From Rhodoferax sp. OV413 (GTDB lineage Bacteria; Pseudomonadota; Gammaproteobacteria; Burkholderiales; Burkholderiaceae_C): DNA of 64,000 nucleotides. The stretch spans positions 13,730 to 77,729 of the forward strand of contig CAMAWD010000007.1 of the NCBI GenBank assembly GCA_945861785.1, written 5' to 3'. The position numbers were made by a program, and so were the translations under genes. The notes under the pieces were generated by a model, which was not told where the DNA came from, searched no databases, and saw only the letters and a program-made list of their open reading frames with translations. Positions 4,248-20,599 of the stretch are shown here, one piece after another. Within the stretch, counting starts at the first letter, position 1. Each line of letters begins with the position of its first letter.

Positions 4248-5342
4248 TCAGGTTCCCGGTCCGTCCGCGAGTCCAGTGACCCCGGCCAATCCTGGCGATT
4301 GCCCCCCAACCACCCCAAACAAATGGCAAGCCACCACCGCCCCCCGCTGCAACCCTGGCACCCGGCGCGGCACCAGCGAAGGAACGCTTTCCTGGCACCT
4401 TGCCATGGCATTCGGGCAACGCGCCGCAAACGCGCAACCTTTCGGCGGGTTGGCCGGGTCCGGCAGTTCCGAACCCGCTACTTCGTTCTCCGCCGCGATG
4501 TGTGCCGCACCCCCAGTCTTGTTGCGGCTGGGGATCGATGACAACAACAGCCGCGTGTAGGGGTGCACCGGCTGCTCGAAGATGTCGCGCGCCGGCGCCA
4601 GCTCGACGATGCTGCCGAAATACATCACCGCCACGTCGTCGCTGATATGCCGCACCACCGAGAGGTCGTGCGAGATGAAGACCATCGCCATGTTGTGCTG
4701 GCGGCGCAATTGCATCAGCAGGTTCAGGATCTGCGACTGGATCGACACGTCCAGCGCCGACACCGGCTCGTCGGCCACCAGCAGGCGCGGCTCCAGCGCC
4801 AGGGCGCGGGCAATCGCGATGCGCTGGCGCTGCCCGCCCGAAAATTCGTGCGGGTACTTGTCGGCGTCGCTGTCGGTCAGTCCCACGGTTACCAGCAGTT
4901 CATGCACGCGCTGCATGCGTTGCGCGCGGGTCTTGTCGGTCCAGTGAATATCCAGCGGCTCGCGCACGATCTCGCCGATCGTGTGTTTCGGGTCGAGCGA
5001 TGAAAACGGATCCTGGAACACCATCTGCATCCAGCGCCGGTGCGTGCGGCCTGGTTTTGCCGTGGGGGAGATCCAGTCGACACCGGCGAATTCGACCTTG
5101 CCGGCCGTCGCGTCGATCAGGCGCATAAGCGTGCGCGCCAGCGTCGACTTGCCGCATCCCGACTCGCCGACGATGCCCAGCGTGCGGCCATCGTACAGCT
5201 CGAAGCTCACCGCGTTGAGCGCCTTGAACTGCTTGTTGCCGGGCAGCATGAAGTGTTTGCTCAACCCATGTACCCGCAATAGCGACGCCGCTGGGGGCGA
5301 CGCGGGATTGCCGCCGGCCGGGCGGCTTGTGTCAGCGTGCAT
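4248..5342 (-). CDS. Dipeptide/oligopeptide ABC transporter ATP-binding subunit (OppF/DppF-like)
   Basis: Walker [17 protein letters not shown] signature, ADEPVSALD, C-terminal HPYT and Cys motif. Confidence 0.95.
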   Translation of the reverse strand: MHADTSRPAGGNPASPPAASLLRVHGLSKHFMLPGNKQFKALNAVSFELYDGRTLGIVGESGCGKSTLARTLMRLIDATAGKVEFAGVDWISPTAKPGRTHRRWMQMVFQDPFSSLDPKHTIGEIVREPLDIHWTDKTRAQRMQRVHELLVTVGLTDSDADKYPHEFSGGQRQRIAIARALALEPRLLVADEPVSALDVSIQSQILNLLMQLRRQHNMAMVFISHDLSVVRHISDDVAVMYFGSIVELAPARDIFEQPVHPYTRLLLSSIPSRNKTGGAAHIAAENEVAGSELPDPANPPKGCAFAARCPNAMARCQESVPSLVPRRVPGLQRGAVVACHLFGVVGGQSPGLAGVTGLADGPGT

Positions 5343-6318
5343 CGGCGTACCAGCAGGCAGCTTGTTCTTCGGGCTTGCCGCCCAGCACCGTCATCGGGGC
5401 GGCCTTTTCGCAGCGCGCATCAGCCCGGCTGCAACGGGACGCGAAAAGGCAGTTCTCGCCGCGCGCGCCCAGCGGCGGCACCGTGCCCGCAATCGTCGGC
5501 AGCAGTTCGCCCGGTGGGTGCCGCGCAGGAGCTGTCTGCAGCAGGGCACGGGTGTAGGGGTGTGCTGGATGGTCGAACAGCGCGGCCACACTGCGCTTCT
5601 CCGCGATGCGCCCGGCGTACATGACGGCAACCGAATCGCAGTGGTCGGCCACCAGCGCCAGATCGTGGGTGATCCACAACATGGCCATGTTGAATTCCCG
5701 GCGCAGGTCGGCCAGCAGCCGCAGAATCTGCGCCTGCACCGTCACGTCGAGTGCCGTGGTGGGTTCGTCGGCGATCAGCAGCTTGGGCTGGCAAGCCAGC
5801 GCCATCGCGATCATCACGCGCTGGCGCTGCCCGCCGGACAACTCGTGGGCGTAGGCGTGCACCCGTTTGGCCGCGGTGGCGATGCCCACCATGTCGAGCA
5901 GCTTCACTACCTGCGCCGCAGCGGCCTGCGCGTCCATGCCGCGGTGCAGACGCAGGCCCTCTGCCACCTGGTCGCCCACGGTCAGCACCGGGTTCAGGCT
6001 GGTCATCGGCTCCTGGAAGATCATCGCGATCTGGCTGCCACGCAGCTGGCGCATGGCCTTTTCGGGCAGCGCCAGCAGATCCTGGCCCTCGAACAGGATG
6101 CGGCCGCCGGCATAGACCGTCTGCGCGCGGGGCAACAGCCGCATCACCGCCATCGCGGTCACGCTCTTGCCGCAGCCCGACTCACCCACCAGCCCCAGTG
6201 TCTGGCCTGCGTGCAGCTGCAACGAGACATGGTCGAGAACGGTGTGGGTGCCGCGCGCAGTGCGCAGGCGCACGCTCAGGTCCTGGATGTCGAGCAGGGG
6301 AGGCGGCGGGTTGTACAT
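5332..6318 (-). CDS. Dipeptide/oligopeptide ABC transporter ATP-binding subunit (OppD/DppD-like)
   Basis: [41 protein letters not shown]. Confidence 0.95.
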
Positions 6319-6325
6319 TTACGAA

Positions 6326-7375
6326 ATGATGACTCGATCGAGCCGGGAAAGGGACTTGGCGCCGCGCATCGAAGCGGCCATCGCCGATGTTACCCCGGGC
6401 GTGGTGCTGCGCGCCTTCAGCGGCGGTGCGCTGGTGTGCGACCTGCGGGTCGGCGATACCCGGCGCTTTTACGACCTGGCGTCGCTGACCAAGATCGTCT
6501 TCACCCAGCAGGCGCTGGTGCAGGCTTTCGACGCAGGGCTGTGGACACTTGACACGACCGTGGGCGACGTTTTGCCCGACTTCACCCATCCACAGACCCA
6601 TATCACCGAGCTGCTGACGCACACTTCCGGCATCGAGTGGTGGATGCCGTTTTACGAGTCGGTGGACATGGACCTGTCCTGGATGGATCGGCGGCGCTGG
6701 TTGTATGCGCAGTTGCAGGCCGCACCCTGCAACAAGACCGGCCGAGCGGTGTATTCCGATCTCGGATTCATGCTGCTGGGTTTCGTGCTGGAGGCGATGC
6801 ACGGGAAGAACCTGTTGCAAATCTGGCAGAGTCTGAAAGCACACAGCTACGCGGGCAGCAGCCTGGACTTTCACGCCGACAACCTGCCGCTGCACCCGCG
6901 CGACCAGTACGCGGCCACCGAGTTGTGCCCCTGGCGCCGCAAGCGCCTGCAGGGCGAGGTGCACGACGACAACACCTGGTCGTTCGGCGGAGTGTCCACC
7001 CATGCGGGGTTGTTCGGCAGCATCGATGACCTGGCGGCTTATGGCCTGCAGTTGCGCACGCAGTTGCTGGGTTTGCCCGGCGCCGTGGTGCAACACGCCA
7101 CTGCGCTTCAATTTTCCCGGCGCGCCATTCCGGTCGAGGCCGGCGACTGGGCGCTGGGTTTCATGCTGCCCTCGCCGCATGGCGCCAGTTGCGGCCGGTA
7201 CTTTTCGCCACGTTCTGTCGGCCACACCGGTTTCACCGGCACCTCGTTGTGGTTCGACCCCGAGCGCGACCTGCTGGTCACGATCCTTAGCAACCGGGTG
7301 TACGGGGGGCGCGAGAACAAGGCCTTCCTGGCGCTGCGCCCGCAGCTGCACGATTGGGTGGTGGAGTCTTTGTGA
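6326..7375 (+). CDS. Beta-lactamase-family serine hydrolase (AmiE/AmpH/YfeW-like)
   Basis: SxxK (ASLTK), LLTHTSG, YSDLGF and HTGFTG motifs; no signal peptide. Confidence 0.9.
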   Translation: MMTRSSRERDLAPRIEAAIADVTPGVVLRAFSGGALVCDLRVGDTRRFYDLASLTKIVFTQQALVQAFDAGLWTLDTTVGDVLPDFTHPQTHITELLTHTSGIEWWMPFYESVDMDLSWMDRRRWLYAQLQAAPCNKTGRAVYSDLGFMLLGFVLEAMHGKNLLQIWQSLKAHSYAGSSLDFHADNLPLHPRDQYAATELCPWRRKRLQGEVHDDNTWSFGGVSTHAGLFGSIDDLAAYGLQLRTQLLGLPGAVVQHATALQFSRRAIPVEAGDWALGFMLPSPHGASCGRYFSPRSVGHTGFTGTSLWFDPERDLLVTILSNRVYGGRENKAFLALRPQLHDWVVESL

Positions 7376-7866
7376 ACGACCCGCAGCCCACATCCGACTT
7401 GCAGGTCACGCCGCTCGAGGGCGAGGCCCTGGAGCGCGACTGCGCGGCACTGATGGCGGCATCCGACCCGTGGTTGACCCTCGGCTACGGCTTCGACGAT
7501 CTGTTGCGTACAGTGCGCCTGCCGGGTCGCGAGCGGTATGCGGCACATGTCGACGGGGAGTTCGCCGGCTTCCTGCTGCTCAACCTGCACGGCACCTTCG
7601 CCGGTTATATCCAGACCATCGGCCTGGCACCCCAGTTTCGCGGCAGTGGCCATGGCGCGGAGCTGCTGGCGTTTGCGGAGCAGCGGATATTGCGCGAGCA
7701 CCAGAACGTGTTTCTCTGCGTGTCCTCGTTCAACCATGCTGCGCGGCGGTTCTACGAGCGGCTGGGGTACAGCCAGGTTGGCGAACTGGTGGACTTTCTG
7801 GTGCAGGGGCATTCCGAGCTGCTGCTGCGCAAGACCATCGGGCCCTTGCGCCAGCGCAAACCATAG
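7372..7866 (+). CDS. GNAT-family N-acetyltransferase
   Basis: Acetyl-CoA motif FRGSGHG and N-x-x-A-x-x-FYERLGY; GTG start overlaps the hydrolase stop (GTGA). Confidence 0.9.
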   Translation: MNDPQPTSDLQVTPLEGEALERDCAALMAASDPWLTLGYGFDDLLRTVRLPGRERYAAHVDGEFAGFLLLNLHGTFAGYIQTIGLAPQFRGSGHGAELLAFAEQRILREHQNVFLCVSSFNHAARRFYERLGYSQVGELVDFLVQGHSELLLRKTIGPLRQRKP

Positions 7867-7891
7867 GAGTGTGGGCGGCAGGCGTCTGCCA
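7865..7891 (+). repeat. Direct repeat, left copy (AGGAGTGTGGGCGGCAG-gcg-TCTGCCA)
   Basis: 24/27 identical to 17044-17070, first 17 bp identical; contains a GGCAG/CTGCC hairpin; begins at the GNAT stop codon. Confidence 0.85.
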
Positions 7892-8084
7892 CACGGCAGA
7901 CATCCGCACACGCCAGCATACGCGTCACGCAACCATCCTTTGCTCGCGACATCATTGGCCGGGACTGGTTTCGCCGGCCATGCCGCCGAGGGGACACGGG
8001 ATCGCCGTCGCTTGCGATAACCTCGGCCCGGTAGGGCACGCGGGCCCCACGTTCCTACCGGACATACCTACAAGGAGACTTCCT

Positions 8085-9242
8085 ATGCTTTCCCAGATGA
8101 CCTTTCCAATCCTCGCGCTGCCGCAGATGGAATTCGGCGTGGATGTATCGCTGAACCTGGCGGCCCACGTGAAGGCGCTCGGGCGCAGCACGGCACTGAT
8201 CGTCACCGACGCCGGCCTGGTGGCCAGTGGAGCCATTGCCCCGCTGCTGGCCAAACTGCGGGCCGACGGCATCACCGTCGAGGTGTACGACGGGGTCGAG
8301 GCCAACCCGACCGACCTCAACGTGATGGCCGGCGCCGAACGCCTGCGTGCGCTCGACAAGCCCGTGCTGGTCGCCATCGGTGGCGGTTCGGCCATGGACT
8401 GCGGCAAGGCGATCGCGCTGCTGGCGCCCAATGGCGGCACGGTGGCCGAGCTGCAGGCGGCCCCGCCGCGGCACCCCGGCGTGCCCGTGATTGCGGTGCC
8501 CACCACCTCGGGCACCGGCTCAGAGACCAACCATGCCTGCGTGATCACAAACACGACGCTGGGCCGCAAGACCGTGCTGATTGACCTGAGCATCCGGCCC
8601 ATGGTCGCGCTGCTCGATCCCCGTCTGACGCTGGGCCTGCCGAAGTACCCGACCGCGACCTGCGGGTTCGACGTACTCACGCACGCCGTCGAGGCCTTCA
8701 CGTCGGTGCGCTGCACGCCGTACTCGGATGCGCTCGCGCTGGGCGCGATCCGAATCGTGGCGCGCCACCTGCGCGCGGTCGTCGCCGATGGGTCCGACCT
8801 CGAGGCGCGTTCGCAGTTGCTGCTGGCCTCCACCATGGCGGCGGCGGCGTTCCTGGTGTCGGGCCTGGGCAGCACGCACGGCACGGGCCATGCGTTGTCG
8901 GCGCGGCTGAATGCGGCCCATGGCCAGACGCTGGCCACCATGTTGCCGCATGTCATGGACTACAACATGCCAGTGCGCGCGGCCAAGTACGCCGAGGTGG
9001 CGCAGGCGCTGGGCGTGGCCTCGGCCACCGAGAGCGAGCAGCACAATGCGCGGGCGGCGATCCACGAGGTGCTCGCATTGCGCGCCGCCATCGGAATCGA
9101 GCGCTCGATACGGGAGCTCGGCGGCACCGATGCGCTGCTGCCCTTGCTGGTCGCCGATGCCCTGGCGGATCGCGCGAACCTGGCCAATCCGCGTCCACTG
9201 GACGCGGCCGCCTTCGAAGCCCTTTACCGGGCCGCCTGGTAA
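8085..9242 (+). CDS. Iron-containing alcohol dehydrogenase
   Basis: GGGSAMDCGK, PTTSGTGSE, DVLTHAVEA, H-x-x-x-H and HG metal ligands; AAGGAG RBS. Confidence 0.93.
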   Translation: MLSQMTFPILALPQMEFGVDVSLNLAAHVKALGRSTALIVTDAGLVASGAIAPLLAKLRADGITVEVYDGVEANPTDLNVMAGAERLRALDKPVLVAIGGGSAMDCGKAIALLAPNGGTVAELQAAPPRHPGVPVIAVPTTSGTGSETNHACVITNTTLGRKTVLIDLSIRPMVALLDPRLTLGLPKYPTATCGFDVLTHAVEAFTSVRCTPYSDALALGAIRIVARHLRAVVADGSDLEARSQLLLASTMAAAAFLVSGLGSTHGTGHALSARLNAAHGQTLATMLPHVMDYNMPVRAAKYAEVAQALGVASATESEQHNARAAIHEVLALRAAIGIERSIRELGGTDALLPLLVADALADRANLANPRPLDAAAFEALYRAAW

Positions 9243-9441
9243 GACCGCTCGGGCGTGTCAGCGCCCGGCCGAAGGCGGGACAGCTTTTGCTGCCGGGTGC
9301 GATCGTGCGCTTCGACCCGGCCGCCCACCTGCTTCACTGTTGCCGTCGCGGAAGGAACACAGAAGCTGGGGCGCCAGCGCGCCCGGCAGGGTCACCATCT
9401 TCTGCCCGGTGCGCGGGGCGCATGCTGCACGCGTCGAACTG

Positions 9442-10425
9442 TCAGGACTTCAAATCCAGACCCTTGGCGGCCTCAGTCATCCATGCAATTTCTGACATGA
9501 TGAACTGGCGAAAATCATCGGGCGACTTGCTGACAACGGCATTTTGACCGGATGCAACCATCTTCTCCAGCACCGAAGGGTCTAATGCTGCAGCGCTTAC
9601 CTCTCGGTGGAGGTGCTGCACGATCTCGGGCGGGACACCTGCGCGGGCCACGAGGCCACTCCAATAGGTCATGGGCGGTAGATTCACACCCGCCTCGGCA
9701 AAAGTTGGAACGTTCGGCATGTCCTTCCAGCGCACACCATCCATCATCGCAAGGACCTTTACCTTCCCGGAGGGCGCGAATTGCTTGGCGAAGAACCCTG
9801 GGGCCATTAAGAAGCTGACGGTACCGCTCATCAGCGCCTGGACCGCGTCGGGGCCACCGCGGAAAGGCACTGCCAGGCCTTTGAAGCCGGCGATGCGCTC
9901 AAACTGGGTTAGCTTGAGGTGCTCAGCCGTGCCGACGCCGGTGGTTCCGTAGCTGAGCTTGTCGGGGTTGGCGCGTCCGTAAGCGGCCATTTCGCCCAGG
10001 GTCTTGAATGGAGAGTCACCGTTAACAATCAGTGCGATGGGGCTGGTAGATGTCACCGAGATGTGCGCGACTTGCTTTTCCATGTCGAACTGCTTCTGTA
10101 CGGCATGCAACGCCGCGAAAGAGTTGGTGGTATGCATCAGCGTATGCCCGTCTGCTGGCGCCGCCTGCAGTGCTTGCCAGGCGATCATGAAACCGCCTCC
10201 CGTGCGGTTTTCCACGATCACCGTTTGTTTGAGGTTCTTTTCGAGCACTGCGGCCAGCGCCCGCATGCCAACATCGGCGGCGCCACCGGCTGGAACACCG
10301 ACGATGATGCGCAGGGGCCCGCTCGGAAACCCGGACTGCGCACGAAGCGGCAGGGCCAAACTGGCGGCGGCCGCGGCTGCGACCTGAAGGACCCGGCGGC
10401 GGGGATGGTTGGTAGTGTCTGGCAT
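9442..10425 (-). CDS. Bug/TctC-family (tripartite tricarboxylate transporter) periplasmic binding protein
   Basis: Tat-like RRRVL leader, PAGGAAD, VENRTGGG, YGTTGVGT, PNVPT motifs. Confidence 0.92.
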   Translation of the reverse strand: MPDTTNHPRRRVLQVAAAAAASLALPLRAQSGFPSGPLRIIVGVPAGGAADVGMRALAAVLEKNLKQTVIVENRTGGGFMIAWQALQAAPADGHTLMHTTNSFAALHAVQKQFDMEKQVAHISVTSTSPIALIVNGDSPFKTLGEMAAYGRANPDKLSYGTTGVGTAEHLKLTQFERIAGFKGLAVPFRGGPDAVQALMSGTVSFLMAPGFFAKQFAPSGKVKVLAMMDGVRWKDMPNVPTFAEAGVNLPPMTYWSGLVARAGVPPEIVQHLHREVSAAALDPSVLEKMVASGQNAVVSKSPDDFRQFIMSEIAWMTEAAKGLDLKS

Positions 10426-10798
10426 GTCTGTCTCCTGGTCTAGGGTTGGTTCGTCGGGCTGCGGAATCATCATATTCGCAGAACCGGAATACACAATACG
10501 GTCAACTTATCAGCGTGAGCTCTTGGCGACAGTACAGGCTTCCGGGAAGACTCGAGCGCGTCCGTCAACTCCGGCTTGCAGTTGGCTTGCCCGGGGCATT
10601 GCGGCACCAACAAGGGCCGCCATTTGCACCAGCATAAGAGGGGCCACATGCCCGAGCAGATGCCTGGCGGTCCGCGCAATGTCAAGCGAGCGTCGTGAAG
10701 TCGCAGACTCAGTCTTTGGCGGAAATCATGCAAGTTCGGGTTCGTCAATTATGCTTGTCGGGTCAGAACCGAACACAACCCATCCGTGAGCATCCACC

Positions 10799-11851
10799 AT
10801 GCCTGAACACTACCGACTCCTCGGCGGCCCCGGGTCGCCCTATTCACTCAAGCTTCGTGCCATCCTGCGTTATCGGCAACTGCCGCATCGTTGGATCGTT
10901 CCGCGCGGCTATCTCGCCACCGAAGGTGAGCTGGCACGGGCCGGCAAGCAGATCATTCCGGTCCTGCAGTACCCGGATGGCAGCTACTGGGCCGACTCCA
11001 CCCCGCTGGCCTATGCACTGGAGGTACGCCACCCCGGTCAGCGCTCGATCATCCCGGGCGATCCGGGGATGGCTTTCCTCTCCCACCTCATCGAGGACCT
11101 GGCCGACGAGGTGCTGCCGGTGGCCCTATTCGACATGCGCTGGGGCAGCGAGGAAGACCTGACGTTCTGCGCCCGTCGCCAGATCTCAGGCTGGCTCTCA
11201 CCCATGCCTGCCAGCGAGTTCGATCCACTGGTGGCGAAGTTCATCGAACGACAGGTGGCCAATCGGGCCCTCTGGGTCGCAGCCGACAACCACGGCATAT
11301 TGGCCGACTTCTACCTGCGCTTGCTGGCGGCAATGGAACAACTGCCCGAAACATCGTCCTGGTTGTTCGGGTCGCGTCCCTCATTGGGGGATTTCGGACT
11401 GTACGGGCAGCTGAGCCAATGCGCCATCGACCCCACGGCCTCCGGCCTGATGCGCCGGCACGCGCCGCGCGCCTACCAATGGACCCAGACGCTCGATGAT
11501 GCCTGCGGCGTCGACGGCGAGTGGGCGGCCCCCGCGTCGCTGCCGCCGACGGTCGGCCTGCTGCTCGATCTGGTCGGCGAATTCCACTTGCCGCTTCTGC
11601 TGGCGCATTCCCGCGCATGCGCCTCGGGCGACCCCGGTTGGGAAGCGGCCATAACCGGGCGTCGATGGGTTGCGCGAAAGACCGAACCCTACAAGCTCAA
11701 ATGCCTGACGTGGCTGCGCGATGACCTTACGCGCGTGCCCGAGGCTTCGCTCCAATGGCTGCGACCTTTGCTGCAGCAGCATGGCTGCTGGGATGCGCTT
11801 CAGCGCGACGACCTCGACGCGCGCTTTTTCAAGCCGATGGCGCCGGTCTGA
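10799..11851 (+). CDS. Glutathione S-transferase-family protein
   Basis: N-terminal GSPYSLKLRAILRYR, IPVL...DST; C-terminal WLFGSRPSLGDFGLYGQL. Confidence 0.85.
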   Translation: MPEHYRLLGGPGSPYSLKLRAILRYRQLPHRWIVPRGYLATEGELARAGKQIIPVLQYPDGSYWADSTPLAYALEVRHPGQRSIIPGDPGMAFLSHLIEDLADEVLPVALFDMRWGSEEDLTFCARRQISGWLSPMPASEFDPLVAKFIERQVANRALWVAADNHGILADFYLRLLAAMEQLPETSSWLFGSRPSLGDFGLYGQLSQCAIDPTASGLMRRHAPRAYQWTQTLDDACGVDGEWAAPASLPPTVGLLLDLVGEFHLPLLLAHSRACASGDPGWEAAITGRRWVARKTEPYKLKCLTWLRDDLTRVPEASLQWLRPLLQQHGCWDALQRDDLDARFFKPMAPV

Positions 11852-12588
11852 TGGCGTCGGCCGCGCGCGGCGCGCCGGTCGGCACGCCGCTGTTCGCCCG
11901 GCTGCGTGACCGGCTGCGTGCCCACATCGTCAGCGGCGCTCTGGCGGCCGGCAGCAAGCTCCCCTCCGAGGCCCAGCTGGAGGCCGAGTATGGCGTCAGC
12001 CGCATAACGGTGCGCCAGGCGCTGGCCGAACTGCAGGCCGCCGGCCTGATCGAAAAGGTGAATGGCAAGGGCAGCTTCGTCAAAAGGCCGGAGCCACCGC
12101 CGGGACTGAGGCCGCTGACCGGGTTCAACGAGACCATGCGCCAGCGTGGCCACAAGGCCATGGGCACGGTCACGGCACCACGCGCGCTGCAGGCGGACGC
12201 CCGCGTGGCGGCGGCGCTGCGCGTGCCACCGCGGTCGCCCGTGAGCGCCATCACCATCCTGCGGCTGGTGGACGGCGAGGCGTTCGCCAGGCACACCATC
12301 TGGGGCAGGCGCAGCCTGATCGCGCGTCTGGCGGCCGAAGACTTGCAGACCAATGACGTGATCACGATCGCGCAGGATCGGCTCGGCCACCGGCTGGACC
12401 ACAGTGAAATGGAAATCAGCGCACTCAACGCGGGCGCCCAGCTGGCCCGCGCCCTGGGCATCGCCCGGGGCGCCGCCGTGATGTGCCTGGCCATCGTGGG
12501 TTTCGACGCCAATGGCAAGCCGCTGCTGTTCAGCGATTTCCTGGCGCGCGGCGACCGGTTCCGCTATCCGATCACGATGGGGCGCTGA
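11851..12588 (+). CDS. GntR-family regulator, HutC/UTRA subfamily
   Basis: LPSEAQLEAEYGVSRITVRQAL...GKGSFV wHTH plus UTRA-like C-terminus; TGATG coupling to the GST gene. Confidence 0.93.
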   Translation: MASAARGAPVGTPLFARLRDRLRAHIVSGALAAGSKLPSEAQLEAEYGVSRITVRQALAELQAAGLIEKVNGKGSFVKRPEPPPGLRPLTGFNETMRQRGHKAMGTVTAPRALQADARVAAALRVPPRSPVSAITILRLVDGEAFARHTIWGRRSLIARLAAEDLQTNDVITIAQDRLGHRLDHSEMEISALNAGAQLARALGIARGAAVMCLAIVGFDANGKPLLFSDFLARGDRFRYPITMGR

Positions 12589-12712
12589 CCGCGCCCAGGA
12601 CGACCAGCGCCGGCAATTCGGGCTGCGCAGCCGATGCACGCAGCGTGACCGGCCCGAAGTAGCCGCACGCCGGGCTGCGCATGCAATGCCCCGGACCCGG
12701 CCCGCACAGCCC

Positions 12713-13969
12713 TCAGGCTGGGATGCGGACCAGCAGCTGTGTGATGCCGCGTACCAGGCAATGGCGTGTGCGCACCGGTTCACCCACGACTTCGATCGTC
12801 GGGAAACGGCGCAGGATTTCCTCCCAGAGGATGCGCAACTGCAGTTCCGCCAGTCGGTTGCCGACGCAACGGTGAATACCGAACCCGAAGGACAGGTGCT
12901 GCCGCGGACGCGCGCGGTCGACGATGAAACGATCGGCGTTTTCGATCGCGCGCTCGTCCCGGTTGCCCGACAGGTACCACATCACCACCTTGTCGCCCCG
13001 GCGTATCGGTTTGCCGCCGATTTCCGTGTCCATGGTGGCTGTGCGCCGCATATGCGCCAGCGGGGTCTGCCAGCGGATGATCTCGGGCACCAGGCTCTCA
13101 ACCAGCCGCGGGTCGGCGCGCAGCTTGGCGAACTGCTCCGGATTCTGGTGCAACGCCAGCAGGCCGCCCGACATGGAGTTGCGCGTCGTGTCGTTGCCCC
13201 CGACGATGAGCAACGACAGGTTGCCCATCAACTGCTGCGGTGGCATGTTGCGCGTGGCCGGGTTGTGCGCCAGCATGGAGATCAGGTCGGGGCGCGGCGG
13301 CGCATTGACGCGTTCGTTCCACAGCCGGGTGAAGTACTCGACCATCTTCATGACCTCGACGAAACGAGCCTCCTCGGTCGCAAACATCCCATCGACGCCT
13401 GGCACCGCGGTCATCACGTCGGACCACCACGGCAGCAGACGGCGTTCCTCGAGGGGAAAATCGAACAGCGTCGCAAGCATCAGCGTGGTCAGTTCGATCG
13501 AGACCCGGTCCACCCAGTCGAAGGTCTCGTCGCGCGGCAGCCCGTCGAGGACGGTGCAGGTGCGCTGGCGAATCAGCGGCTCGAGATTTGCCAGGTTTCC
13601 CGGCGCGACGATCGGACTGACCGCCTTGCGTTGTTCATCGTGCACCGGTGGATCGGCCGCGATGAACGAGTGGGCGCGGTACTGCACCGGCCGCTCGATG
13701 ATCGATATGCCTCCCAGGTTGATGTCTGACGAAAACGCCGCGTGGTTGGAATCCACGGCCATGATGTCCTGGTAGCGCGTGACCGACCAGAAATCGCCGT
13801 ACAGCGGGCTGTGGCTGCGATGGACCGGGTCTTCGGCACGCAGCCGCTCGAAATAGTGGTGGATGGTGTCGTCCTCGAACAGCGTGGCATCGCTTGGATC
13901 GATCGCGTCGAGCGGCATGCCGCGGATTCTTTCGCGGATTTCATCGGCGGCCTGGCTGGCATCGGACAT
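12713..13969 (-). CDS. Cytochrome P450, CYP153-like (alkane/fatty-acid terminal hydroxylase family)
   Basis: LLIVGGNDTTRNS I-helix, EIIRWQTPLAHMRR, heme motif FGFGIHRCVGNRLAELQLRILWEEIL; these strings match CYP153 as recalled. Confidence 0.9.
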   Translation of the reverse strand: MSDASQAADEIRERIRGMPLDAIDPSDATLFEDDTIHHYFERLRAEDPVHRSHSPLYGDFWSVTRYQDIMAVDSNHAAFSSDINLGGISIIERPVQYRAHSFIAADPPVHDEQRKAVSPIVAPGNLANLEPLIRQRTCTVLDGLPRDETFDWVDRVSIELTTLMLATLFDFPLEERRLLPWWSDVMTAVPGVDGMFATEEARFVEVMKMVEYFTRLWNERVNAPPRPDLISMLAHNPATRNMPPQQLMGNLSLLIVGGNDTTRNSMSGGLLALHQNPEQFAKLRADPRLVESLVPEIIRWQTPLAHMRRTATMDTEIGGKPIRRGDKVVMWYLSGNRDERAIENADRFIVDRARPRQHLSFGFGIHRCVGNRLAELQLRILWEEILRRFPTIEVVGEPVRTRHCLVRGITQLLVRIPA

Positions 13970-13999
13970 ATTGATTCTCCTCTCAAGGGTGTTTGGGGC

Positions 14000-14320
14000 T
14001 CAGTGCTGCCCCATTGGCAGCGCCACGATCAAGCCGTCCAGCGCATCGGTGACGGGAATCTGGCACGACAGGCGCGAGTTCTCCCTGCGCTCCGCCGTGA
14101 AGTTGAGCATCTCTTCCTCGGTCGGCGAGATCGGCGGCAGCTGGGATGCCCAATGCGGATCGACGAATACGTGGCAGGTGGCGCAGGCGCATTGGCCACC
14201 GCAATCGGCGTCGATGCCGGGGACCAGGTTGTTGACGGCGGCGAGCATCAGGGACTCGCCGCTGCTGGCCTGGACTTCGCGGCGCGAGCCGTCGTGGGCG
14301 ACAAAGGTGATCTTGGGCAT
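14000..14320 (-). CDS. [2Fe-2S] ferredoxin, putidaredoxin/adrenodoxin type
   Basis: CGGQCACATCH...SRLSCQ; directly upstream of the P450. Confidence 0.95.
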   Translation of the reverse strand: MPKITFVAHDGSRREVQASSGESLMLAAVNNLVPGIDADCGGQCACATCHVFVDPHWASQLPPISPTEEEMLNFTAERRENSRLSCQIPVTDALDGLIVALPMGQH

Positions 14321-14836
14321 TCTCAGTTTCCTCCGGGTCTCATTGCCAATTCAGCAGGGTCTTCTCCAGCCGCGTCTACCCCGCCGGGCATCGCCGGACG
14401 GTATGAGGCATCCTTGTCGGGAAAGCGGAAGCAGACGGATCCGACCGGACAGCCCGACTTGAGCGCGAACACGCCAGCCCTGCGATGGTGGTGCCCTCAA
14501 ACACGCCACGGTCCGGCAGGCGGCGCCTGACGACCAGCCGGCGGTCGGGCGTCTGGCGGAGAGGACCAGCAGCTTCGTGGCCGGAAAACGCGGATTGGAG
14601 TGCATCACGGGAAGTATGAATATGCGTTCATGTTAGAGAGCAATCCAGTCCCGTGTCAACATGGGGGATTCCCGCATTGCCCCGAGCTTCCCTTTGGAAA
14701 AGTGTTCCTGAGGTGTCATAACAGGTATTGCCAACCGAGTCGAGACGGAGGTATAAAGCAGAACCTGGCTTCGGGTCGAGTGTTGCCCGCGCATCGACGC
14801 CCACAGTCAGATTCCAAACCCGAACCCCCTCACACC

Positions 14837-16936
14837 ATGGCCCACCCGCTCGACAGCCTCTTCAACCCGTCGTCCATCGCAGTGGTCGGCGCCTCCAACT
14901 CGCTGGGAAAGATCGGCGCGGCACCGATGAGCTTCCTGCTGAACTTCGGCTATCAGGGGGAGATCGTCCCGATTCATCCGAGCGACACCGTTGTGCAGGG
15001 GCGGCAGGCCTGGCCCAGCCTGCTTGCCGCGGTGCAAGGCGGTGGCCGGTCGATCGACCTGGCCATCGTAGCCGTACCCGCGGAACGGGTGGCAGAGACG
15101 GTCGCCGATGCAGGCCGCGCCGGTGTGGGCAACCTGGTGATCTTTTCCTCGGGTTTCAGCGAGACCGGCGAGGACGGCGCACGCGCGCAGCGCGAGCTGG
15201 TGGCGCAGGCGGCCCGCCTGGGCATCCGCATGCTCGGCCCGAACTGCCTTGGTTTCATGAACGTGGGGCAGAACATCTATGCAACATTTTCCCCGGTGAT
15301 AAAGACGGGGCGTGCCGTGCGTGGACCGATCGCGCTGGTCAGCCAGAGTGGTGCCTTCGGCGCCTACGCCTATTCGCTCGCGCGCGGGCGCGGCGTCGGC
15401 CTGTCGCACTGGATTACGACCGGAAACGAGGCCGGACTTGGCGTGTCCGACTGCATCGAATGGCTGATTCAGGACGAGCACACACGGGTCATCATGGTTT
15501 ACATCGAAGGCGTGCGTGAGGGTGAGCGCTTCAAGCGGGCGCTGGCCGGGGCGCGTGCCGCTGGAAAGCTGGTGGTAGCGGTCAAGGTCGGGCGCTCCGA
15601 GCTTGGCGCGCAGGCCGCGGCCTCGCACACCGCGTCGCTGGCTGGTGACGACGCCGCGTACGAAGCCCTGTTCCGACAGTATGGCGTGTGGCGCGCGCAT
15701 GGCATCGACGAGTTCTTCCAGGTTGCCCATGCGCTGGTCGTGTCGGGCTCGCCGCGGCGCTCCGGCCTGGGAGTGATGACGGTCTCGGGCGGCGTGGGCG
15801 TTTTGCTGGCCGACGAGGCACAGGCTCGCGGCCTGGCAATGCCGCCGCTACCCGAGGCAGCGCAACAACGCGTCCTGCAATGGGTGCCGTTTGCCGGGCC
15901 GCGCAATCCGGTGGACATCACCGGCATGGCGGCGGCCCAGCCGGAGCTGATCGAGAAGGCCATGCGCCTGATGCTCGACGAAGGCGGCTACGGAACATTG
16001 CTGCTGTTCATTGCTGCCGCAGGCCTGGCCCCGGCAGGCTGGGAGACGCTGCACCAGTTGGCCGTCCACCTGCGCCGCGATTACCCGGACGTCGTGCTGG
16101 CCTACTGCTGCCTGATCACACGGGAGCGGCAGCAGGCGCTGCAGGACATCGGCTGCCTGAGTTACGACGAACCGACCTACGCGGTGCGGACACTGGCGGC
16201 GCTGGAGTACTTCCGCGCGGCCGCTGCGCAACCTGTGCGCACGCTGACCATGCCGGCCGCGGTGGCAAAGCCCGATCTCCCTATGACCGAGGCGCGCGCT
16301 CTGGCCTGGCTGGACGCGCAGGGACTTCCGGCCATGCACCACCAGGTCGCCACCAGTGCCGCGGAGGCGGAGCAAGCCGCACAGGCACTCGGCTTTCCGG
16401 TGGTGCTGAAGGTGTCGTCGCCGGATATTCTGCACAAGAGCGAGCTGGGCGGCGTGGCGCTGGGTCTGTCCGGCGCCGTTGAAGTGCGCCAGGCGTTCGA
16501 CCGCATCATGCAATCCTGCCGCGGCGCAGCGCCGCTCTCCCGCATCGAAGGCGTGCTTGTCGCGCCCATGGTGGGCGGCGGCGTGGAGTGCATCCTGGGC
16601 GTGCGTCACGATCCGGCGCTGGGCGCACTGGTGATGCTGGGCATCGGCGGGGTGGACGTGGAGTTGTTGCGCGACGTCAGCGTGCGCGTGGCCCCGGTGG
16701 ACACGGCCCAGGCGCAGACCATGGTTGACGAGCTGAAACTGGCCCCACTGCTGCGCGGGCATCGGGGCCGGCCGCTGGCTGACGAGGCCGCCCTGGTGGC
16801 AAGCTTGGTGCGGCTGTCCGAACTGGGCGCCGCATGTGACAGTTGGATGGACGCGATCGAGATCAACCCGTTGAAGGTGCTTGCCAAGGGCCAGGGGGTG
16901 GTCGCACTGGACGCGGTGGTGACCGCAAGGAGCTGA
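14837..16936 (+). CDS. Acetate--CoA ligase family (ADP-forming acyl-CoA synthetase, fused alpha/beta)
   Basis: LDSLFNPSSIAVVGAS, GPNCLG, SQSGA, SHT phospho-His motif, C-terminal ATP-grasp (LKVSSPDILHKSE, EINPL). Confidence 0.93.
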   Translation: MAHPLDSLFNPSSIAVVGASNSLGKIGAAPMSFLLNFGYQGEIVPIHPSDTVVQGRQAWPSLLAAVQGGGRSIDLAIVAVPAERVAETVADAGRAGVGNLVIFSSGFSETGEDGARAQRELVAQAARLGIRMLGPNCLGFMNVGQNIYATFSPVIKTGRAVRGPIALVSQSGAFGAYAYSLARGRGVGLSHWITTGNEAGLGVSDCIEWLIQDEHTRVIMVYIEGVREGERFKRALAGARAAGKLVVAVKVGRSELGAQAAASHTASLAGDDAAYEALFRQYGVWRAHGIDEFFQVAHALVVSGSPRRSGLGVMTVSGGVGVLLADEAQARGLAMPPLPEAAQQRVLQWVPFAGPRNPVDITGMAAAQPELIEKAMRLMLDEGGYGTLLLFIAAAGLAPAGWETLHQLAVHLRRDYPDVVLAYCCLITRERQQALQDIGCLSYDEPTYAVRTLAALEYFRAAAAQPVRTLTMPAAVAKPDLPMTEARALAWLDAQGLPAMHHQVATSAAEAEQAAQALGFPVVLKVSSPDILHKSELGGVALGLSGAVEVRQAFDRIMQSCRGAAPLSRIEGVLVAPMVGGGVECILGVRHDPALGALVMLGIGGVDVELLRDVSVRVAPVDTAQAQTMVDELKLAPLLRGHRGRPLADEAALVASLVRLSELGAACDSWMDAIEINPLKVLAKGQGVVALDAVVTARS

Positions 16937-16961
16937 AACTTTCGACCGGCCACGGGTAGAT

Positions 16962-17043
16962 ATGACCATGCAACACAAAATCAACCAGCGCCAGTTTGGC
17001 GTCGCGCCCGCGGCGGCGGGGATGACGCCTTCCGCCATCGACG
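16962..17043 (+). pseudogene. Possible 5' remnant of a secreted (Bug-like) protein truncated at the cassette boundary
   Basis: MTMQHKINQRQFGVAPAAAG resembles a degenerate twin-Arg signal; the frame then runs into the direct repeat and loses recognisable character. Confidence 0.3.
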
Positions 17044-17070
17044 AGGAGTGTGGGCGGCAGAGATCTGCCA
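17044..17070 (+). repeat. Direct repeat, right copy (AGGAGTGTGGGCGGCAG-aga-TCTGCCA)
   Basis: 24/27 identical to 7865-7891; the copies are 9179 bp apart. Confidence 0.85.
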
Positions 17071-17229
17071 AACCCTGCACAACGCGCATAGAACGCCCTG
17101 AGGTCCAGGGCATCCACCGTGTCGCCAATGAAGTCCGCCAAGTGTCCCTTGGGCAGCCTGTCACGGATGCTAAGATGATTTTTTGACTGCGGGAAGCCGT
17201 TCCGCACCGCCACAACAAGGAGATTGCCC

Positions 17230-18753
17230 ATGACCACCCCCATTGCCACCGCCACCCGTCGCCCGCTGACCCTGCGCCTGGCCGCGCTTGCTGCTGGCCT
17301 CGCATTTGCCGGAATCGCCAGCGCCCAGGTGCTGGAGATCGCCGCCGACGGTTCGCCGGCCGGGCTCGACCCGCATGTGGTGCCAGCCTTCAACACGGTG
17401 CTGATCAACAAGAACATTTATGAAGGGCTGACCGCGATCGACAAGGACCTCAAGATCGTGCCCTCGCTGGCCACCTCCTGGACCATCTCCAAGGACGGCC
17501 TGAGTTACCGCTTCAAGCTCAAGCCCGGCGTCAAGTTCCACAACGGCAAACCGATGGGCGCCGCCGACGTGGTGGCCTCGCTGTCGCGTGTACGCGACAC
17601 CAAGACCGGCTCTCCCTATGCCGCACGGCTGTCGATGGTCAAGGAGATCGTGGCCGACAAGGGTGACGTGGTCATCAACCTGAACACCGCCTCGCTGCCG
17701 CTGGTGGGCCAGCTCGAAGCCGTCGCCATCGTGCCGGCCGAGTCCCTGGCCAACCCGGCCGACCTGCAGAAGGTGCCGGTTGGCACCGGGCCGTTCAAGT
17801 TTGACAAGTGGGTGACCGATGCCCACGTCAGCCTGGTCAAGAACCCCAGCTACCACGTGGCCGGGCTGCCCAAGCTCTCCGGCCTCAAGTTCAACATCGT
17901 GCCCGAGGCCAGCACGCGCCAGGCCGGCATGGCCAGTGGCGCCTACCAGTTCTTTCCGTCGGTCGATGCAGTCACCATCAACGCGCTGGCGCGTATTCCC
18001 GGCGTGGTCACCACCAAGGTGCCAGACCTCGGTTACAGCCTGGTCGGCATGAACGTGAGCAAGCCGCCGTTCGACAACCCCAAGGTGCGCGAGGCCCTGA
18101 ACTACGCCCTGAACCGCCATGAAATCGTGCGTGGCGTGTACCTGGGTCGCGCCTCGATCGCCGCCCCGTTGCCAGCGGTGCTGACCGAGTGGGCGGTTCC
18201 GTACACCGATTTCCCGTGTTACCAGTCCAACCCCGAGAAGGCGAAGGCCCTGCTGAAGGAAGCCGGCGTGGCGATGCCACTGGCCATCACGCTCAATGTG
18301 CTGCCCAACCCGGTGGCCAAGGACACGGCCGAGATCGTGCAGGCGCAGCTGGACAAGGGTGGCTTCAAGGTCACCTTGCTGGCCCAGGAGATCGGTAAAT
18401 TCGTCGCCGACTGGCGCGCGTCGAACTTCACCGCCTTCGTGTCGCTCAACGGCGGCGGTGTGGACCCGGACGACTACTTCTACCGCACCTTCTACACCGG
18501 TTCGTCGACCAACGTCTTCAAGTACTCGAACACCGCGCTCGACAAGCAGCTCGACGCCGGCCGCGCCGCCACCAACAAGGTCGAGCGCAAGAAAATTTAC
18601 GACGATGTGCAGAAGACACTCGCCTGCCAGGGCCCGATCGCCTTCCTGGCCAACGGCGACCTGTTCACCGCCATGCGCGCCAACGTGAAGGACTTCGCCC
18701 CGATCAGCACCCGCTCGCTGGTGTACCTGCGCCAGGCGACCCTCGAGAAATAG
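17230..18753 (+). CDS. ABC transporter substrate-binding protein, family 5 (peptide/oligosaccharide)
   Basis: Signal peptide; LDP...IYEGL, PSLATSW, GVKFHNG, VGTGPFKF, PFDNPKVREAL; AAGGAG RBS. Confidence 0.95.
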   Translation: MTTPIATATRRPLTLRLAALAAGLAFAGIASAQVLEIAADGSPAGLDPHVVPAFNTVLINKNIYEGLTAIDKDLKIVPSLATSWTISKDGLSYRFKLKPGVKFHNGKPMGAADVVASLSRVRDTKTGSPYAARLSMVKEIVADKGDVVINLNTASLPLVGQLEAVAIVPAESLANPADLQKVPVGTGPFKFDKWVTDAHVSLVKNPSYHVAGLPKLSGLKFNIVPEASTRQAGMASGAYQFFPSVDAVTINALARIPGVVTTKVPDLGYSLVGMNVSKPPFDNPKVREALNYALNRHEIVRGVYLGRASIAAPLPAVLTEWAVPYTDFPCYQSNPEKAKALLKEAGVAMPLAITLNVLPNPVAKDTAEIVQAQLDKGGFKVTLLAQEIGKFVADWRASNFTAFVSLNGGGVDPDDYFYRTFYTGSSTNVFKYSNTALDKQLDAGRAATNKVERKKIYDDVQKTLACQGPIAFLANGDLFTAMRANVKDFAPISTRSLVYLRQATLEK

Positions 18754-18794: not shown

Positions 18795-19751
18795 ATGCGC
18801 GGCCTGATCTTCAAGCGCCTGCTCGACCTGGCCGGCGTGTTGCTGGGCGTGTCGATCCTGGTGTTCCTGATGATCCGGCTGATCCCTGGCGATGCCGCGC
18901 AGGTGATGCTCGGCGCCAGCGGCGACGCCAGCGAAGAGCAGGTGCAGCAGCTGCGCCTGAAGCTGGGCCTGAACGACCCGGTGCCGGTGCAGTACCTGCG
19001 CTGGATCGGCAACATGGCGCAAGGCGATTTCGGCGTCAGCATCTGGACCGGCAAACCGGTGATGGACGACATCGCACAACGCATCGGTGTCACGGCCGAA
19101 CTTACCTTCCTCTCCCTGCTGCTGGCGGTGGTCTTCTCGATCCCGGCGGGGGCCCTGATGGCGTATTTCCGGGGCAGCGTGTCGGACGTGCTGATGCGCA
19201 TCATCACCATCACCGGCGTGACCATGCCGGCCTTCTGGCTCGGTGCGCTGTTGATCTTCGGCTGGGCGATCTGGTTTCCCAACTGGCAGACCCTGGGCTC
19301 GATTCCGCCTTTTTCCGAAGACCCCTGGTCGCACCTGCAGCGCATGTTCCTGCCCACGCTGACCTGCGCCCTGCCGGTGATCGCCTCGCTGGCGCGCATC
19401 ATGCGGTCGGCCATGATCGATGCGCTGGGGCAGGACTACATCCGCACGGCGCGCTCCAAGGGCCTGGACGAGTGGACGGTCACCTTCAAACACGCGCTGC
19501 GCAACTCGCTGATCCCGTTTGTCACTGCGCTGGGCATCATGGCGGGGTACCTTTTCAGCGGTGCGATCGTGGTCGAACAGGTGTATGCCATACCAGGTCT
19601 GGGGCGCCTGATGCTCGGCGCCATCGCAGACCGCAATTACCCGCTGATCCAGACTTCGATCCTGGTGGTGACCTGCGCCTTCGTGGTCATCAATGCCGTG
19701 ATCGACCTGTTGTACCGGGTGATCGACAAACGCGCGGGGGCTGCGTCATGA
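18795..19751 (+). CDS. ABC permease (OppB/DppB-like)
   Basis: IPGDAA, GDFGVSI, EAA-loop DYIRTARSKGL, IPGLGRL. Confidence 0.95.
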   Translation: MRGLIFKRLLDLAGVLLGVSILVFLMIRLIPGDAAQVMLGASGDASEEQVQQLRLKLGLNDPVPVQYLRWIGNMAQGDFGVSIWTGKPVMDDIAQRIGVTAELTFLSLLLAVVFSIPAGALMAYFRGSVSDVLMRIITITGVTMPAFWLGALLIFGWAIWFPNWQTLGSIPPFSEDPWSHLQRMFLPTLTCALPVIASLARIMRSAMIDALGQDYIRTARSKGLDEWTVTFKHALRNSLIPFVTALGIMAGYLFSGAIVVEQVYAIPGLGRLMLGAIADRNYPLIQTSILVVTCAFVVINAVIDLLYRVIDKRAGAAS

Positions 19752-20599
19752 TCAGCCGCTGGTTCAACCACGTGGGGCGCGACTTCGTGCGCAACCCGAT
19801 CCTGATGCTGGCGCTGACCCTGGTGCTGCTGCAGGTGCTGATTTCAGTGTTTGCCAGCCTGATCGCGCCCTACGACCCGGTGGCGCAGGCGGTGGAGGCG
19901 CGCATGGCGCCGCCGAGTGGCGAGTTCCTGCTGGGCACCGACAAGCTCGGGCGCGACGTGTTGTCGCGCATCATCCACGGCTACCGGTCCTCGCTGGGCA
20001 TTGCGTTCTCGGCGGTGTTCGTGGCGCTGCTCTTGGGCGGCAGCCTGGGCATCTGGGCCGGCTACAAGGGCGGCTGGATCGACCGCGTGGTGATGCGCCT
20101 GGCCGACGTGTTGTTCGCCTTCCCGATCATCCTGCTGGCCATCGGCGTGATCGCCATCCTGGGCACCAACACCGCCTCCACCGTGGTCGCGATCGCGGTC
20201 GTGTATTCGCCCATCTTCGCGCGGCTGATGCGTGCACCCACGCTGGTGCTGCGCAGTGCAGACTACGTACACGCGGCCCGCAGTTTCGGCGCCGGCGACC
20301 TGCGCATCGTCGTGCAGCACATCATGCCCAACCTGATGAGTGTGATCCTGGTGCAGGCCAGCCTCTCGTTGTCCACGGCCATCCTGCTGGAGGCCAGCCT
20401 GTCGTTCCTGGGCATTGGCGCACAACCGCCGGCGCCGTCGCTGGGGCGCATGTTGTCGGAAGGGCGCGACTACATGTTCATGGCACCCTGGGCGAGTTTA
20501 TTTTCCGGTCTGGCTATCCTCCTGGCGTCGCTGGGTTTCAACCTGCTGGGCGATGGCCTGCGCGACCGGCTGGATCCGCGCCTGCGCGGGATCGACTGA
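19748..20599 (+). CDS. ABC permease (OppC/DppC-like)
   Basis: LGTDKLGRDVLSRII, DYVHAARSFGA, HIMPN, NLLGDGLRDRLDP; ATGA overlap. Confidence 0.95.
   Translation: MISRWFNHVGRDFVRNPILMLALTLVLLQVLISVFASLIAPYDPVAQAVEARMAPPSGEFLLGTDKLGRDVLSRIIHGYRSSLGIAFSAVFVALLLGGSLGIWAGYKGGWIDRVVMRLADVLFAFPIILLAIGVIAILGTNTASTVVAIAVVYSPIFARLMRAPTLVLRSADYVHAARSFGAGDLRIVVQHIMPNLMSVILVQASLSLSTAILLEASLSFLGIGAQPPAPSLGRMLSEGRDYMFMAPWASLFSGLAILLASLGFNLLGDGLRDRLDPRLRGID

Follow-up and report, generated by a model that had tools for sequence, protein, structure and literature searches.

How did a block of seven catabolic genes come to interrupt a transport locus with which it has nothing in common? The question is raised by a stretch of 64,000 nucleotides from Rhodoferax sp. 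OV413 (contig CAMAWD010000007.1, positions 13,730 to 77,729), hereafter the window, in which an operon-like peptidoglycan-recycling transport locus, with ABC ATPases on one side and hydrolase, GNAT acetyltransferase, solute-binding protein (SBP), permeases and AnmK on the other, is split by an unrelated catabolic block between two copies of a short direct repeat. We believe that a fossil transposon occupies the segment from 7866 to about 17162, and that it was mobilised by an insertion sequence (IS) of the IS1182 family, here called ISx, either as a composite of two IS copies or, in the manner of TnSha1, as a single IS working with an extra end. We would give this reading a probability of roughly 0.7. 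Read in this way, the cassette is an ordinary example, well preserved, of how an IS captures genes, and no new mechanism is needed to account for it.

The comparison with relatives allowed us to establish that the block is an insertion. The SBP protein was searched in 40 related genomes, and up to 20 kb around each orthologue were compared. Orthologues with 87-95% identity were found in nine genomes of the same genus, and in all nine the locus holds hydrolase, GNAT and SBP, the GNAT gene lying 107-230 bp from the SBP start. None of the nine has cassette genes between GNAT and SBP, nor was the repeat found at any of these loci, even with three mismatches allowed in its core. Since nine congeners keep GNAT and SBP adjacent without cassette or repeat, the 9.2-kb block is a lineage-specific insertion, as the original prediction had proposed for this position. 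Furthermore, five metagenome or metagenome-assembled genome (MAG) assemblies of the same species (99.5-99.99% nucleotide identity) all carry the cassette at the same site; it is fixed in the sampled population of the species.

The two repeat copies follow the pattern AGGAGTGTGGGCGGCAG-N3-TCTGCCA and start at 7865 and 17044. The left copy (7865-7891) reads AGGAGTGTGGGCGGCAGGCGTCTGCCA and the right copy (17044-17070) AGGAGTGTGGGCGGCAGAGATCTGCCA; they lie on the same strand, 9179 bp apart, and agree at 24 of 27 bases, exactly as first reported from the letters of the window. Both contain the hairpin GGCAG-N4-CTGCC that had been described for them, and all three mismatches fall in its loop. When up to three mismatches are allowed, these two are the only matches in the window, where 100 shuffles lead one to expect 0.00. 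In the genome, available as a draft assembly of 202 contigs and 7.13 Mb that may contain collapsed IS copies, the 27-mer and its 17-nt core occur at these two sites only, and a relaxed scan added one diverged copy, GGAGTCTGGGCGGCACCAATCTGCC, on contig C61. With two close copies and one diverged copy in 7.13 Mb, and none expected by shuffling, the repeat is neither a chance match nor an abundant dispersed element of the repetitive extragenic palindromic (REP) kind, and the dispersal in many copies per genome that marks REP and BIME elements is not seen in this assembly. An inverted partner end was not found at up to five mismatches near either border, nor at 17162-17400, nor genome-wide.

What the repeat is became clear from other genomes. 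A search with GGAGTGTGGGCGGCAGNNNNCTGCC in one genome per prokaryote species returned five hits, all in Burkholderiales MAGs, and in every case one side was unrelated DNA ending in CTA, while the other side was conserved and led into the 3' end of a transposase gene. Three of the hits (L031, L032 and L035) are complete elements of 1558 bp, the ISx of this study, which encode a 441-aa DDE transposase and have terminal repeats of 16-19 bp. Their ends read CTA followed by GGAGTGTGGGCGGCAG(A/T)A on one side, and CTGCCGCCCACACTCC followed by TAG on the other, so that the 16-nt core GGAGTGTGGGCGGCAG stands inverted at both termini of the three complete elements; it is present without mismatch in both window copies. 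The open reading frame (ORF) at 597-1922 of L031 scores 401 bits on the NCBIfam model NF033551 for IS1182-family transposases (cut-off 270), and its product also matches the Pfam domains DUF772, DDE_Tnp_1 and DDE_Tnp_1_6.

The two ends of ISx can be told apart. The hairpin GGCAG-N4-CTGCC, variable in its loop, is specific to the right end (IRR) and occupies the same position in the intact copies, and the left end (IRL) has a different continuation, GGCAGAAGGGAAGTCCC. The two copies in the window belong to the right-end type, and in each the order from outside to inside of the element reads from left to right. The same 16-nt ends and the same hairpin position in intact ISx make the repeat an IS terminal inverted repeat and not an attachment (att) or REP site; judged by its sequence, the 27-bp direct repeat is a pair of same-orientation right termini of ISx, and the hairpin is a conserved feature of that end. 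All ISx copies examined have CTA/TAG flanks, which suggests a CTAG or TA target. A complete and potentially active ISx was not found in the 202-contig draft, which holds relics only (on C7, the contig of the window, and on C68, C24 and C61). Those outside the window lie at C68:33946-34110, C24:74465-74641 and C61:15885 to about 16000, and comprise a piece from the N-terminus that includes a stop codon, another from the C-terminus, and a right end, flanked by CTA, that retains some of the 3' untranslated region. Relatives of ISx, mostly degraded, also occur in several genomes of the genus.

At the right border of the block the IS end begins with 17045 and is preserved for about 32 nt (17044-17076, + strand), including the ...TCTGCCAAACCC that is also present in the C61 copy. 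Fused to this IRR is a relic of the ISx transposase gene (17074-17162, - strand) that retains codons 22-51, that is 30 codons; the original prediction had seen no transposase here. The relic is 85% identical in nucleotides to positions 127-215 of the L031 element (Smith-Waterman score 63, against 13.1 +/- 1.2 for shuffles) and shares 68% amino-acid identity with the L031 transposase over residues 18-55 (E 1.5e-9), and its peptide has a tblastn match to an annotated IS1182-family transposase in PLSDB. A Pfam scan of the 73-aa relic peptide gave no match; the relic ends before DUF772, which covers residues 57-124 of the intact transposase. About 1.3 kb have been lost between the IRR and codon 51, and codons 1-21 and the IRL are also gone. 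The right border of the inserted DNA is at about 17162 and not at 17070, where it had first been drawn, the relic continuing for another ~90 bp and coming within six bases of the native TGCTAAGAT. We also considered whether the minus strand of the repeat might represent N-terminal codons of the transposase ('GFGRSLPPTLL'), and rejected this; the homology to the intact transposase stops at ...ARCAG, and the 27-mer is therefore an IS terminus fused to the relic through an internal deletion.

On its outer side the same IS end adjoins captured DNA. Between the last cassette gene, encoding an ADP-forming acyl-CoA synthetase (ACS), and the IRR lies the 5' stump of a second Bug/TctC receptor gene (16962-17044, + strand; below TctC'), recognised by alignment with contig C76 of the congener G004 and consisting of 27 codons with a TAT-type signal peptide, MTMQHKINQRQFGVAPAAAGMTPSAID. 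In G004 the ACS orthologue (86% nucleotide identity) is followed by the same TctC gene, intact and duplicated, and the homology with the window ends at 17040-17046. As the IS end cuts a TctC gene that is intact after ACS in G004, cargo and IS were already linked when they arrived between GNAT and SBP. In G004 (L030, 1875-4204) the ACS orthologue is followed by a tandem of two TctC genes, and ahead of the second stand ~230 bp that repeat the ACS 3' end and spacer (82% identity to window 16822-17046); this pair is a local tandem duplication.

At the right IS end two other assemblies of the species have the canonical flank, (GA)CTA|GGAGTG, where the window reads CGA|GGAGTG. The difference is a single base: 17043 is G in the window and one other assembly and T in two further ones, and in the comparison with L037 it is the sole difference in 11.4 kb. 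With T at this position the TctC' stump ends in TAG, and with G a 75-codon ORF runs through the IS end and the relic.

The left junction is clean. The IS end proper starts at 7866, directly after the TA of the GNAT stop codon, so that the stop TAG consists of the native TA and the first G of the IS end; the original prediction had already noticed that the repeat begins within this codon. The outer junction is canonical, CCATA|GGAGTG, and the solo IRR (7865-7891, + strand), whose 16-nt core equals both ends of L031, L032 and L035, turns its outer face towards GNAT and its inner face towards the cassette. It is IS-like over 27-30 nt only. Beyond it a leader of 193 bp (7892-8084, + strand), with an AAGGAGA ribosome-binding site, extends to the alcohol dehydrogenase (ADH) gene. 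Aligned with the three intact ISx elements this leader has a Smith-Waterman score of 14 (shuffle mean 14.2) and thus no IS homology; its local alignment with the right relic is no better than with shuffles, and blastn and tblastx returned no homologue in its own genome or in G004:C76. In the closest congener, G004 (L011, G004:C68 at ~1650), the GNAT stop codon is the middle of a perfect palindrome of 10 bp, GCGCTAGCGC, and the ISx flank motif CTAG forms part of this palindrome.

Taken together, native DNA meets a clean IS end with TA at the left junction, the IS end on the right adjoins cargo, and on that side the border between native and foreign DNA falls within the IS relic. Of the two IS right ends around the cargo, only the right one keeps transposase sequence. 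The history we propose, as the simplest, begins with a step that the truncated gene shows, the entry of ISx into the 5' end of the Bug/TctC gene downstream of ACS, at CTA|G. A second ISx right end in the same orientation would then have come to lie upstream of ADH, either as part of a full IS or as a solo extra end. Because the junctions are clean, the transposase may have paired this distal right end with the IRL of the proximal IS, and the unit (IRR)-ADH-TctC-GST-GntR-P450-Fdx-ACS-TctC'-(IRR-tnp-IRL) would have moved into the TA of the GNAT stop codon, between GNAT and the SBP promoter. Decay of the IS has led to the state found today, with the right copy lacking ~1.3 kb, codons 1-21 and the IRL, and the left copy reduced to 27-30 nt. 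With the transposase destroyed, the far end lost and no intact ISx in the assembly, the cassette is immobile.

Several observations weigh against this history. The right outer end, the IRL, has been deleted, and in the present state neither inverted outer ends nor a target duplication can be demonstrated around the unit. Since the left IS amounts to 27-30 nt and the next 193 bp have no IS homology, a full second IS is an assumption. The two right ends are shortened to within ~6 nt of each other (27-30 versus ~32 nt), which is unexpected under independent decay and may point to another process. Neither a second insertion site nor an intact transposon was found in genome, metagenome and plasmid collections, including two metagenome scans for the exact junctions. 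Finally, the cargo is not conserved as a unit elsewhere, and only the origin of ACS-TctC' can be traced.

In a rival reading, an ISx copy was already present between GNAT and SBP. A circular or linear molecule carrying the cassette and the TctC'|IRR junction would then have recombined within the ~30-bp right end, either by a RecA-dependent route or by a conservative transposase-mediated one in the style of IS26 translocatable units, and direct IRRs around the cargo would result. The topology fits, the left copy keeping the chromosomal left flank and the right copy the IS interior; both ends would be kept to nearly equal length, and the ISx relics in the genome show that there were several former copies. 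The donor, however, must already join the inner side of an IRR to the ADH leader, which is the very structure to be explained. Moreover, the identity of 17+7 nt around a central block of three mismatched nucleotides is marginal for homologous recombination, the TA junction on the left is explained equally well by ordinary transposition, and we know of no conservative targeted reaction in the IS1182 family. We regard this route as improbable, although it is the most serious competitor of transposition as a unit.

It is less probable still that the association is a coincidence, the cassette having arrived otherwise, for example by homologous replacement from a relative, and the ISx ends having landed near its borders later. 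Transfer within the genus by recombination is plausible given the host-like composition of the cargo, with a tetranucleotide distance at the median of random 9.2-kb chunks, and an ACS orthologue in the same genus. Yet both junctions between native and foreign DNA have IS sequence exactly in place, and the right end borders on cargo (TctC') and not on native DNA, so that the linkage of cargo and IS predates the arrival; nor do the nine sampled congeners include an intermediate state.

The hairpin of the ISx right end might itself serve as a recombination substrate, with segments between two direct IRRs excising and re-integrating as circles beside another such end, in an IS26-like manner. If true, this would explain why both copies keep just the hairpin-bearing ~30 nt, but we consider it a long shot. 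The weakest proposal is the one made originally, an att-like or REP-like hairpin site served by a recombinase in trans: hairpin-bearing direct repeats do flank a block that encodes no recombinase, but in other genomes this sequence stands, inverted, at either end of a 1558-bp element with a DDE transposase, a transposase relic adjoins the right copy, TA flanks both outer junctions, there are only three copies in 7.1 Mb, and the mismatches between the two copies are central, in the part of an att site that has to be identical, all of which leaves the idea largely refuted and very improbable.

If the block is a fossil transposon mobilised by ISx, it can be set beside several known systems. Classical composite transposons have directly oriented IS copies and decay by IS loss, as in the ISApl1-mcr-1 transposon Tn6330. 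Here, too, same-orientation right ends of one IS bracket the cargo, IS loss fixes it, and the empty site is seen in nine of nine congeners, where GNAT and SBP are adjacent; in contrast to such transposons, transposase sequence survives in one copy only, and neither the IRL nor any target duplication is left. In the pseudo-compound transposons and translocatable units of IS26, direct IS repeats surround the cargo as well, and insertion may occur beside an existing copy. The arrangement in the window resembles them in its direct IS repeats and in a possible insertion next to a pre-existing copy, with the difference that IS26 belongs to the IS6 family and ISx to the IS1182 family. Integrase-borne islands share with the block that direct repeats bound inserted DNA absent from relatives; unlike them, it has no integrase, its repeat is an IS terminus, and its target is the TA of a stop codon and not a tRNA gene or att site.

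The closest parallel is TnSha1, which consists of one IS1272 copy, of the IS1182 family, and an alternative inverted repeat upstream of a captured chromosomal fabI gene; this extra repeat has the same orientation as the proximal IS end, giving the order IRL'-fabI-IRL-IS1272 (PMC4923244). TnSha2 is generally flanked by two IS1272 copies (PMC4923244), and IS1272 shows duplications of its terminal sequences and inserts just downstream of genes (PMC5678879). In the window an IS of the same family likewise lies beside a captured chromosomal metabolic gene, a direct terminal repeat brackets the cargo, and the IS was inserted just downstream of the captured gene, insertions of this kind being typically found immediately downstream of genes (PMC4923244; PMC5678879). 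Indeed, the order IRR(7866)-cargo-IRR(17045)-transposase relic is that of one IS with a direct repeat of its end on the far side. There are also differences. The cargo measures 9.2 kb and has seven genes, against one gene in TnSha1; the extra end has a perfect 16-nt core and the right-end hairpin and is thus a genuine IS end, while TnSha1 has a look-alike of 69% identity; and (C)TA flanks are present, where insertion of TnSha1 removes part of a target hairpin and creates no duplication. The element in the window also differs in its host, a betaproteobacterium, in the decay of its IS and in that its mobility is deduced rather than observed.

The native locus on both sides of the block is well preserved, and gene calls in the window are supported by a near-identical contig of the same species. 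On the left, two ABC ATPases of Dpp/Opp D and F type (4248-5249 and 5332-6318, - strand; Pfam ABC_tran and oligo_HPY) are divergent from the hydrolase-GNAT pair and syntenic in the nine congeners. The serine hydrolase, beta-lactamase/PBP4B-like (6356-7375, + strand; PF00144, E 2e-34, with a weak NCBIfam PBP4B match), is syntenic and native as well, and the GNAT acetyltransferase (7372-7866, + strand; PF00583) is native and intact, its C-terminus having the same length as in relatives. A local rearrangement is seen at L015 (G005:C191, 14673-18310), where the hydrolase lies beyond the ATPases and the order is hydrolase, ATPase, ATPase, GNAT, SBP. On the plus strand of the window, 7002-9242 forms a 746-codon open frame from the hydrolase interior through GNAT and the repeat into ADH, of which only the last 385 codons, those of ADH, are a gene; the frame is a high-GC artefact that can mislead ORF lists.

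To the right, the native operon continues with the family-5 SBP (17230-18753; Pfam SBP_bac_5), two permeases (18795-19751 and 19748-20599; BPD_transp_1) and the anhydro-MurNAc kinase AnmK (20634-21767; Pfam AnmK), all on the plus strand. The first native sequence right of the insertion is the extended -10-like motif TGCTAAGAT (17168-17176, + strand), which lies ~60-100 bp before the SBP start in all nine congeners, in spacers that are otherwise variable; the motif, usually preceded by GG, is kept upstream of SBP in all ten genomes. It is probably the extended -10 element of the SBP promoter, to judge from this conservation. The -35 region of that promoter is now IS-relic sequence in the window. 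Between the GNAT stop and the promoter the window has lost the native spacer, but its right junction is a deletion and not an IS end.

The seven enclosed genes, as originally listed, were confirmed by domain assignments. They encode an iron-containing ADH of 385 aa (8085-9242, + strand; PF00465, PF25137), a Bug/TctC periplasmic solute receptor (9442-10425, - strand; PF03401, E 7e-52), a GST-like protein of 350 aa (10799-11851, + strand; GST_N_2, GST_N_3, GST_C_2), a regulator of GntR/HutC type with a UTRA domain (11851-12588, + strand; PF00392 and PF07702, HutC/PhnF-like in NCBIfam below the curated cut-offs), a cytochrome P450 (12713-13969, - strand; PF00067) in an operon with a 2Fe-2S ferredoxin (14000-14320, - strand; PF00111), and the ACS of 699 aa (14837-16936, + strand; CoA_binding, Succ_CoA_lig, ATP-grasp_5). 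The cassette has no P450 reductase gene. There is no tyrosine or serine recombinase gene in or beside the island either, all seven cargo ORFs and the flanking genes having other Pfam assignments. From its domains, the set suggests a GntR-regulated module for a carboxylate that would combine uptake (Bug), hydroxylation (P450/ferredoxin), oxidation (Fe-ADH) and activation to the CoA ester (ACS).

Rather than a widespread unit, the cargo seems to be a mosaic that was put together within related Burkholderiales. Among its genes, ACS alone has a match of orthologue grade in the closest congener (G004:C76, 86% nucleotide identity). Relatives of the ADH at 79-88% and of the P450 at ~75% identity stand in unrelated contexts; for the nearest ADH relatives (87-89% in amino acids) the homology comprises the ORF and ribosome-binding site only. 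Identical P450 proteins occur in the same species only, in the same arrangement (99.5-99.99% nucleotide identity); outside it P450 relatives reach at most 76% identity and are often beside a TctC gene, though not in the cluster seen here. Plasmids yielded only ~78%-identical fragments of single cargo genes. A pair of adjacent paralogous TctC and P450 genes is present in the same genome (C55:20492-22818), each with ~76% nucleotide identity to its cassette counterpart, and the P450-TctC adjacency recurs in two other organisms. We observed no foreign composition: k-mer usage inside versus outside the block, one of the differences that the original prediction had looked to, does not set it apart, the tetranucleotide distance of the cassette being 0.125, about the median for random 9.2-kb chunks of the genome (0.142 +/- 0.050), and its GC content at third codon positions (GC3) is similar to that of the flanks.

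The agent that split the peptidoglycan-recycling locus has left 27 bp on one side of the block and about 120 bp on the other. On a practical matter, this carries a lesson for other genomes: hairpin-bearing short direct repeats at the borders of islands that lack a recombinase should be compared with IS termini before a new att site is proposed. To our knowledge, elements of the IS1182 family are little studied, and cargo capture by them is documented mainly for IS1272 and TnSha1 in staphylococci. A 9-kb catabolic cargo in Burkholderiales, bracketed with the help of an extra end in direct orientation, would extend the TnSha1 pattern to another phylum and to catabolic genes.

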